A stretch of DNA of 64,000 nt. Origin: an uncultured Chloroflexia bacterium (lineage in GTDB: Bacteria > Chloroflexota > Anaerolineae > JAAYZQ01). Where the stretch lies: NCBI GenBank assembly GCA_963700285.1, contig CAVOXA010000001.1, forward strand, positions 1,504,001 through 1,568,000, read 5' to 3'. The translations under genes and the position numbers were made by a program. The notes below the pieces were generated by a model that was not told the DNA's origin, made no database searches, and saw only the letters and a list, made by a program, of their open reading frames with translations. Numbering within the stretch: position 1 is the stretch's first letter; each line of letters opens with the position of its first letter. Positions 37,253-38,902 of the stretch are shown piece by piece.

Positions 37253-37344
37253 GGATACCCTACCTTTTTATTCACTCTGTGACGAAAGTGGTGTCGGCCG
37301 AGTTCTGGCAGGAGATTCATTCCAATATCGTCCCTCCTGCCTCC

Positions 37345-37788
37345 TCAATTGCCCCCTGCTTCTAGAGGGTAGCCGGCGGCATCCCAGGCCGCCAGCCCGC
37401 CCTTTAGCGCGTAGACCTTGGCTGGATCCACTCCCTGGTCGATCACTGTCAGCGCCGCACGGGCGCTGGTCTCTTCAGCCGGTCAAGTTCAATAGAAGAC
37501 GAGCGATTTGTCGGCCGGAAGCTCACTGGAGCGCACGGCTGCCTCGCCTGCCGGGAAGGAGATGGCTCCGGCGGCGTGGGCCTGCAGGTAGGCGGCTGCG
37601 GACCGGGCATCGTAGATCAGGGCCTCGCCGCTGTCCAGCAGCGCCTTGGCATCCGCCGCTGTAATGCGCTGGATGTCGTCGGCACTCTCTACCACGATTT
37701 GCGGCTCCGCTGCGGGCGTCGCGCCGCCGCAAGCGACCAACATCAGCGTCAGACCGGCCAGAATGATCGTCGCCAACCATTTGTTCAT
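37345..37788 (-). CDS. Rhodanese-like lipoprotein, candidate selenoprotein with two Sec (U100, U102)
   Basis: Lipobox LVAC; DARS..HAAGA; frame continues FY-TGA-T-TGA-PAEETSARAA..VYALKGGLAAWDAAGYPLE to stop at 37345. Confidence 0.8.
37450..37468 (-). promoter_or_regulatory. Candidate bacterial SECIS hairpin
   Basis: CAGCGCC-CGUGC-GGCGCUG; loop begins 21 and 27 nt after the two UGAs, G at loop position 2. Confidence 0.6.
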
Positions 37789-37843
37789 CTGCAACTCCCT
37801 TCGAGGTTGTGGGGGCTGTTCTCCCGAGTGTACCCACTCGATC

Positions 37844-38902
37844 TCAGCCGATAGCAATCATTCGCTCTACGGCACGTGTTGCCCGTACCCGGATCTCGTC
37901 CGGAACCTCGATCACGTACCGCGTGTACTTGAGCGCATTAAGGGTATCTTCCATGGTGATCTCGTTCATGTGCGGGCATCGGACCCGGCAGAGCCGGAGC
38001 ATCTCCTTCGTAGGATTGGCCGCGGCGACGTTGTCACCCATGGCGCATTCCGTCAGCAAGAGATAGCGCGGCGCTGCCGTCGTTTCAACGTAGCCAATCA
38101 TCGCTGATGTGCTCCCCGAAAAGTCGGAGGCCGCAACCACCGCAGGACTACATTCGGGGTGGGCCAGGATGACGACGTCGGGGAACTGTGCCCTGACATC
38201 AGCGATATCCTGGACCGTGAACTTTTCATGGACCTCGCATTTCCCGTGCCAGCCCACCATCTGGTAATCGAGAGCAGGATCTTGGCTGCCAACCGGTGTG
38301 GGTGTCCGGGTAGGAAAAATGATGTGCTTGCCCGTTGTCTCGGCCACGTTGCGGGCGAGATATTCGTCGGGCAGGAATAGTACCGTATCGGTGCCCAGCG
38401 ACTCGATCACTGCCACCGCGTTGCCCGAGGTGCAGCAGATGTCGCTTTCTGCCTTTACGTCGGCATAAGTATTGACATAAGTCACCACGGGTATGCCAGG
38501 ATATCTCCTCTTGAGCTCCCGGACATCCTCGGCCGTGATACTCTCTGCCAGCGAACAGCCGGCCCGGGCTGCAGGGAGCAGGACTGTCTTGGTAGGATTG
38601 AGGATTTTGGCCGTCTCGGCCATGAAACGTACGCCACAGAAGATGATGATATCCCGATCTGTCTGTGCTGCCATTCGAGCCAAAGCCAGCGAGTCCCCGG
38701 TATAGTCCGGGATCGAATGGAACAGCGCTGGCTCCATATAGTTGTGCCCAAGGATGACGGCGTTCCTCTCTTCCTTGAGCCGGAGGATCTCGTAGGCCAG
38801 GTCGGCCTTTATCCGTAACTCAAAGTCTGGAACGATGTCGGCAAGCTTGGCCTTCATTTCAAGATAGATCTTGTCGGCTGACAATCCAAGAGCCTCCTTC
38901 AC
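37844..38902 (-). CDS. nadA: Quinolinate synthase
   Basis: ILGHNYM, FCGVRFMAETAKIL, CSLA, CEVH, HPEC, CPHM. Confidence 0.96.
   Translation of the reverse strand: MKEALGLSADKIYLEMKAKLADIVPDFELRIKADLAYEILRLKEERNAVILGHNYMEPALFHSIPDYTGDSLALARMAAQTDRDIIIFCGVRFMAETAKILNPTKTVLLPAARAGCSLAESITAEDVRELKRRYPGIPVVTYVNTYADVKAESDICCTSGNAVAVIESLGTDTVLFLPDEYLARNVAETTGKHIIFPTRTPTPVGSQDPALDYQMVGWHGKCEVHEKFTVQDIADVRAQFPDVVILAHPECSPAVVAASDFSGSTSAMIGYVETTAAPRYLLLTECAMGDNVAAANPTKEMLRLCRVRCPHMNEITMEDTLNALKYTRYVIEVPDEIRVRATRAVERMIAIG

Follow-up and report, generated by a model that had tools for sequence, protein, structure and literature searches.

A predicted rhodanese-like selenoprotein gene with two in-frame UGA codons in its active loop and one SECIS-type hairpin

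Does the interrupted reading frame at 37345..37788 on the minus strand of the window, the 64,000-nucleotide stretch of Chloroflexia DNA that was analysed, encode one rhodanese-like protein with two closely spaced selenocysteine (Sec, U) residues? Standard translation ends after residue 99, and the gene is normally called as a 99-aa fragment. An earlier reading made from the letters alone (the sequence-only reading) had stated that the open reading frame ends at ...SLVFY while the frame goes on through two TGAs into a rhodanese C-terminus. Both the frame and a Pfam match confirmed this. Counted from the ATG at 37788, codons 99-103 of the minus strand are TAT TGA ACT TGA CCG, and the frame stays open for 45 codons beyond the second TGA. 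The read-through protein is MNKW...LVAC(20)...SLVFY-TGA-T-TGA-PAEETSARAA...LKGGLAAW...GYPLEAGGN-stop. The parts of the gene are as follows.

37345..37788 (-): predicted 147-aa rhodanese-like selenoprotein gene, from the ATG at 37788 to a TGA stop
37795..37802 (-): Shine-Dalgarno-like GAAGGGAG, 6 nt 5' of the ATG, read from the sequence, with a putative function
37729..37788 (-): residues 1-20, judged by eye to be a lipoprotein signal peptide that ends in LVA-C20 (predicted)
37378..37662 (-): rhodanese domain, residues 43-137, spanning both TGAs (Pfam PF00581, 45.9 bits against a cut-off of 22.2; NF041203, 79.6 bits)
37489..37491 (-): in-frame TGA, residue 100, predicted Sec from the frame and the comparison with homologs
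37483..37485 (-): in-frame TGA, residue 102, predicted Sec; the family's invariable Sec site, occupied by Cys in Cys-only relatives
37345..37347 (-): terminal TGA, a genuine stop, where the G001 ortholog ends too and which has no small-loop hairpin on its 3' side

The amino terminus (MNKW...LVA-C20) shows by eye a basic start, a hydrophobic stretch and a lipobox Cys, all retained in the ortholog of G001, a genome of the same genus. The proposal of an exported lipoprotein is upheld to the extent that this segment looks like a lipoprotein signal to the eye. A third read-through at the terminal TGA was ruled out, since the G001 ortholog stops there and the stem downstream has a 17-nt loop. This GC-rich stem (GGCAGGAG / CUCCUGCC) follows the stop codon directly at about 37309-37341 (-) and is possibly an RNA-processing or stability element.

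The assembly is prone to indels, and the TGA codons therefore needed an independent check. Across 37433-37685, a contig from an independent Illumina library (run X3, record 13) departs from the assembly by four substitutions that all lie outside the TGAs, and over 37483-37491 it keeps both codons with no TGC or TGT. This contig derives from an RNA library, and contigs cannot show transcription. In the other three runs, no contig of this strain bridged the site, and just short pieces from relatives were recovered. In G001, the ortholog is 80% identical and both TGA codons are the same. The many indels of the assembly, which also affect selB and selD, could suggest that the TGAs are sequencing errors or the mark of a pseudogene. 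The same codons are present in the independent contig, however, and they recur with an intact downstream frame in G001 and in more than 100 other loci, which leaves this explanation a negligible probability.

A changed genetic code was ruled out as well, because both Trp codons of the rhodanese gene are TGG, the genome has a tRNA-Trp(CCA) and long frames end more often in TGA than in any other stop (2188 of the 4438 open frames of at least 300 codons). UGA is thus not globally recoded to Trp, and the earlier statement that TGA is a normal stop here and TGG the Trp codon was borne out.

The homologs were then compared at the two positions. Within the genome's own family, 21 of 23 genomes gave 34 matches (13 UxU, 20 CxU and one ordinary rhodanese). 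All 33 subfamily homologs have TGA at position 102 and 13 of them also at position 100, with a UxU copy in 10 of the 23 genomes. Two UxU paralogs are held by the window's own genome. The second of them, G000:C1:436227-436547 (L054:5219-5545, -), has an N-terminal membrane anchor without a lipobox and the same downstream hairpin with U-A replacing C-G; in its relatives, the gene is placed downstream of an rpoD-type gene. From a sample of 401 genomes of the phylum we took the 29 best new loci, which are 10 UxU, 18 CxU and 1 CxS, and 20 weaker matches picked by hand, which gave 2 UxU, 5 CxU and 2 CxC, the remainder being other rhodaneses. Metagenomes were searched with an exact DNA pattern for Y-U-x-U-x-x-E-x-x-S-A, which fixes the 5' side of the hairpin stem. 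At least 120 loci were found; 109 listed loci (105 distinct) score above 30 bits against the family profile and 11 do not. In a 201-genome sample of another phylum, the 30 loci are ordinary rhodaneses save one CxC (L266), and the matches listed from a plasmid search carry ordinary rhodanese-domain annotation. Two rhodanese-like loci, L230 (G209:C111) and L233 (G233:C110), have the motif C-x-x-x-x-TGA (YCIGKT-TGA-GESY and YCSGST-TGA-GESY), another Sec spacing, reminiscent of UxxxxU in TsoB.

Among 58 distinct genome homologs, position 100 is Cys in 35 and TGA in 23, with no other stop codon or amino acid. Cys-only CxC relatives exist and have Cys at position 102. At both positions the in-frame UGA is therefore aligned with Cys in homologs, as is expected of a bacterial selenoprotein and of the CxC loop that the sequence-only reading had proposed. 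Its view that a UxU site is rare had to be given up, since 10 of 23 family genomes and many full-scoring members of NF041203 carry it. In protein databases, the family is kept as fragments ending ...FY or ...YCT, beside full-length CxC forms. A quick tree was built from 59 Sec-form and 23 CxC rows over 107 columns with the motif masked, and 37 of its 79 inner branches are unresolved. On the best tree, the distribution of UxU takes 11 changes, of which well-supported branches force at least 3, while position 102 stays TGA; a short tree of 107 columns cannot separate gain from loss of UxU. UxU is common in the relatives compared, and position 100, with TGA taken as predicted Sec, switches repeatedly between Cys and Sec.

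All four genes of the Sec machinery, selA, selB, selC and selD, were found in the genome. selA is intact (E 8.5e-174), the tRNA-Sec (selC) scores 67.5 bits, and the selB and selD matches exceed their cut-offs, selD with an in-frame TGA at its own Sec position. In this assembly, selB (G000:C10:2126954-2128870) and selD (C9:56688-57628) are both frameshifted, and none of the four runs compared with selB gave a contig bridging its frameshifts. Because selB is an open 654-aa frame in G001, as it is in G022, and because single-base indels relative to G001 are scattered across the G000 locus outside selB as well, the selB frameshift is likely an assembly error; the same is likely for selD. In the phylum sample, selA is present in 33 of 34 genomes with a checked CxU or UxU gene versus 304 of 401 overall, counts in which kin are not independent. 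Two draft genomes deviate: G342 has a CxU gene with neither selA nor selB over the cut-off, and G002 has no selB over the cut-off. The loci L078 (G376), L219 (G206) and L236 (G302) are subfamily members with CxS or CxC whose genomes have selA; here Sec is apparently lost or absent from the protein despite the machinery. Judged from all these comparisons, 37345..37788 (-) is very probably a real double-UGA selenoprotein gene.

One candidate SECIS element follows the two codons.

37450..37468 (-): SECIS-type hairpin CAGCGCC-CGUGC-GGCGCUG with a 7-bp stem, encoding part of T-S-A-R-A-A-L

The earlier description of a 7-bp hairpin with a 5-nt, G-containing loop at SECIS distance from both UGAs proved correct. 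The loop CGUGC at 37457-37461 has 5 nt with G at loop position 2, lies 27 and 21 nt 3' of the two UGAs, and the hairpin has -12.1 kcal/mol. The bSECIS model, as given in the accessible part of PMC13188914, has a loop of 3-9 nt, a stem of 4-16 bp, a G in the first two loop positions, a distance of 16-37 nt from the UGA and a minimum free energy of at most -7.5 kcal/mol. For both UGAs, the hairpin falls within all of these limits.

The hairpin was compared in 58 distinct genome segments (63 loci minus identical 60-nt segments) and 105 listed metagenome segments. Every segment of this set has the loop G and forms the three central pairs of the stem. The stem pair 26-38, formed in 58/58 genome and 105/105 listed metagenome segments, joins the third base of a Ser codon with the third base of an Ala codon and alternates synonymously between C-G and U-A. 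Among 161 rows there are 81 pairs of the C-G type, 76 U-A, 4 U-G and no C-A. On the tree of these rows each side changes 17 times, and 7 of 7 independent pairs are concordant in most draws (median sign-test p 0.016). Changes at either position leave the protein unaltered, which speaks for selection acting on the RNA structure. Folding energy by itself is weak as proof of a SECIS: a 27-nt piece trimmed to the hairpin has a z value of -2.9, whereas the 60 nt beginning with the first UGA reach just -0.6, and only about half of the isolated stems reach -7.5 kcal/mol (13/23 UxU, 19/35 CxU, 52/105 listed metagenome). The stem is also partly a by-product of the protein sequence; of four non-Sec controls with DNA, two pair all five core positions and two pair three, and four sequences are too few for a firm control.

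A separate hairpin specific for UGA100 was searched for and was not found in the window gene and only rarely in homologs. Genes of the CxU and the UxU type have the hairpin at the same position, and UxU genes do not show a second candidate hairpin more often (3/23 genome, 9/105 listed metagenome) than CxU genes (2/35). For these reasons, one hairpin serving both UGAs is the simplest reading. SelB-GTP-Sec-tRNA would bind the hairpin loop twice, once with the ribosome at codon 100 and once with it at codon 102, each codon lying within the range of 16-37 nt, and we are highly confident of this step.

The alternation at position 100 can also be read in another way. On the best tree, Cys and TGA replace each other at position 100 no fewer than 11 times, 3 or more of them forced, and 102 stays TGA, so that Sec100 would be dispensable. 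Only UGA102 would then be tuned, and a poorly read UGA100 would act as a selenium-dependent brake that yields mostly an inactive 99-aa fragment unless selenium is plentiful. We consider this very unlikely, since the 27 nt of UGA100 fall within the range of the bSECIS model, UxU is kept in 23/58 distinct genome homologs and in both paralogs of this genome, and the occurrence of nothing but Cys or TGA at position 100 fits selection for C or U.

If both codons are read as Sec, one of the two would take the position of the canonical catalytic Cys. The sequence-only reading had placed the canonical catalytic Cys directly after the beta strand. By the strand, residue 100 fits; by the spacing to the conserved Ser, residue 102 fits, and the assignment is ambiguous. 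Relative to GlpE-type enzymes, the loop has two additional residues, and a Glu (57/58) and a Ser in it are nearly invariant. As Sec102 is constant and residue 100 alternates, we propose that 102 is the nucleophile and that 100 is the residue which resolves. Sec102 would attack an S-S or S-Se bond (of a persulfide, a polysulfide or a protein disulfide) outside the cytoplasm, residue 100 would resolve the adduct, by way of a selenenylsulfide where the motif is CxU and of a diselenide where it is UxU, and a DsbA-like or multiheme partner would re-reduce the 100/102 bond. For these steps taken jointly, the chance is somewhat short of even.

Partners of this kind occur in the relatives. Eight of 33 family loci continue into a DsbA-like C/U-P-Y-C domain, four with CPYC and four with TGA-PYC and a hairpin of its own behind. 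Three Sec (UxU + UxxC) are predicted in L031 and L057 (genomes G021 and G002) and in the metagenome locus L133, and two (CxU + UxxC) in L047 and L048. Moreover, 14 of the 109 listed metagenome UxU loci (L106, L110, L111, L123, L149, L156, L176, L181, L190, L195, L196, L203, L207 and L213) are fused in frame to a CxxCH multiheme cytochrome c domain, with 2-4 CxxCH in the part that the locus still covers. For the heme portion of L106, the thresholds used gave no Pfam or NCBIfam name. The homologs inspected have, by eye, a lipoprotein-type signal or an N-terminal membrane anchor. The fusions to DsbA-like and multiheme domains suggest a role in electron transfer outside the cytoplasm. The window copy stands alone, between nadA and a gene for an HtrA-like lipoprotein and downstream of rrf2 and yibE/F, and its protein has neither a fused partner nor a conserved redox neighbour. 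Family-wide, no common operon was seen in 99 neighbour frames, and the neighbours vary by paralog group.

Both Sec could also be inserted into a plain sulfur or selenium carrier, a sulfurtransferase that would form a perselenide or selenosulfide at one residue and hand the atom on, with no bond between 100 and 102. This would suit the rhodanese fold, with GlpE, PspE and the thiosulfate sulfurtransferases as the nearest solved relatives, and the name sulfurtransferase that the family bears in the accessible text of PMC1976440 and PMC9312934. It would also suit the Rrf2 regulator and the Fe-S enzyme NadA encoded upstream on the same strand. However, nadA (window 37844-38902, -), which lies between rrf2 and the rhodanese gene, is missing from the syntenic G001 locus, and NadA is cytoplasmic. 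The loop is too long by two residues for the GlpE type, its near-invariant Glu (57/58) replaces the Gly/Arg pattern, and the second C/U is retained throughout the subfamily. In GlpE-type enzymes, the loop Arg has a role in binding thiosulfate. A mere carrier is therefore improbable, if the most serious of the alternatives.

Some homologs (L060, L061, L067, L069, L070, L079) adjoin heavy-metal P-type ATPases, a PCuAC copper chaperone, DtxR-type or MerR regulators or FTR1, which would fit a U-x-U that is not a catalyst but a site for soft metals or metalloids (Cu, Hg, As) at the cell surface. These are only 6 of more than 50 neighbour-scanned loci, whose commonest neighbours are rpoD and a WD40/TPR protein, and no metal gene adjoins the window copy. 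We regard a metal site as distinctly unlikely.

Taken together, our results favour, with a probability of roughly 0.8, a gene in which both UGAs are decoded as Sec via the single downstream hairpin, giving a predicted outward-facing lipoprotein that likely acts as a selenium-based redox relay. A more far-reaching version, which we find doubtful and put forward tentatively, would have one SECIS decode two UGAs six bases apart efficiently, with a loop that switches between selenenylsulfide and diselenide. In that case, the family would be widespread and act outside the cytoplasm as a diselenide oxidoreductase with a rhodanese fold. Its members would feed multiheme cytochromes and DsbA-like proteins of sediment anaerobes, and some DsbA-fused relatives would have three Sec.

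That a UxU rhodanese selenoprotein exists has been known since 2007 (PMC1976440, accessible part). New here are that UxU is common, that residue 100 switches repeatedly between Cys and Sec, and that one hairpin apparently serves both codons. Because the gene is mis-called as a 99-aa fragment and the whole clade lies below the NCBIfam cut-off, the clade is probably under-annotated. With their one small hairpin, the matched CxC, CxU and UxU forms lend themselves to asking if two close UGAs can share a single bacterial SECIS, and what an active site gains from a second Sec. In the literature searched, with subscription papers outside its scope, we found neither a biochemical study of a CxU/UxU rhodanese nor a test of one SECIS serving two close UGAs. 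The earlier remark that no characterised UxU example is known thus holds for biochemistry and fails for the motif itself, which was reported in 2007 (PMC1976440, accessible part).

In that report, Zhang and Gladyshev described the UxU form of a rhodanese-related selenoprotein from an Olavius symbiont metagenome (Fig. 3A), in which, as here, a second Sec gives the motif. Theirs is a single form from a deltaproteobacterial symbiont, and the accessible text has no mention of a shared SECIS, export or frequency. From the motif and later reviews, as far as their text is accessible, the subfamily of the window protein appears to be this family. PMC13510729, in its accessible part, concerns a different multiheme selenoenzyme and has no bearing on the rhodanese.

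Sequence comparison places the window protein in the fold family of GlpE and PspE (the family profile matches GlpE 1gmx at E 3.8e-17). These enzymes have a six-residue loop with one Cys and no Sec, whereas the window protein has a loop longer by two residues with two C/U, and it reaches 34.3 bits against the GlpE cut-off of 102. Among the 60 PDB sequences listed, none is named as a CxU/UxU rhodanese. TsoB (NF045694; PMC13188914, accessible part) also has two Sec in a rhodanese-like domain and is a precedent for close UGAs. Unlike the window protein, it is rhodanese/DsbD fusion-like with UxxxxU in place of UxU, and against its 572-position model the window protein scores 21 bits, with a cut-off of 805.

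The closest curated family is NF041203 (rhodanese_LYCAU), which corresponds to the rhodanese-like domain protein form 3 of PMC13188914 and to COG0607 form 2 of PMC9312934. Both papers, in their accessible parts, list it as CxU, PMC13188914 under NF041203 with one Sec and without 'UxU' in that text. The window protein shares its motif Y-C/U-x-U-x-x-E-x-x-S-A, and with C-x-U or U-x-U after the active-site strand it belongs to form 3 / COG0607 form 2 in the sense of this literature; it differs from the listed CxU in its UxU and its lipoprotein-type anchor. NF041203 is its best NCBIfam match with 79.6 bits, below the equivalog cut-off of 115 bits, and is also the best match for 16 of 16 relatives tested, at 61-98 bits and all below 115. 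In contrast, 20 of 24 hand-picked listed metagenome UxU proteins with the same hairpin pass the cut-off. UxU is thus established within the curated family, and the window protein represents a sister group with the same motif and hairpin.
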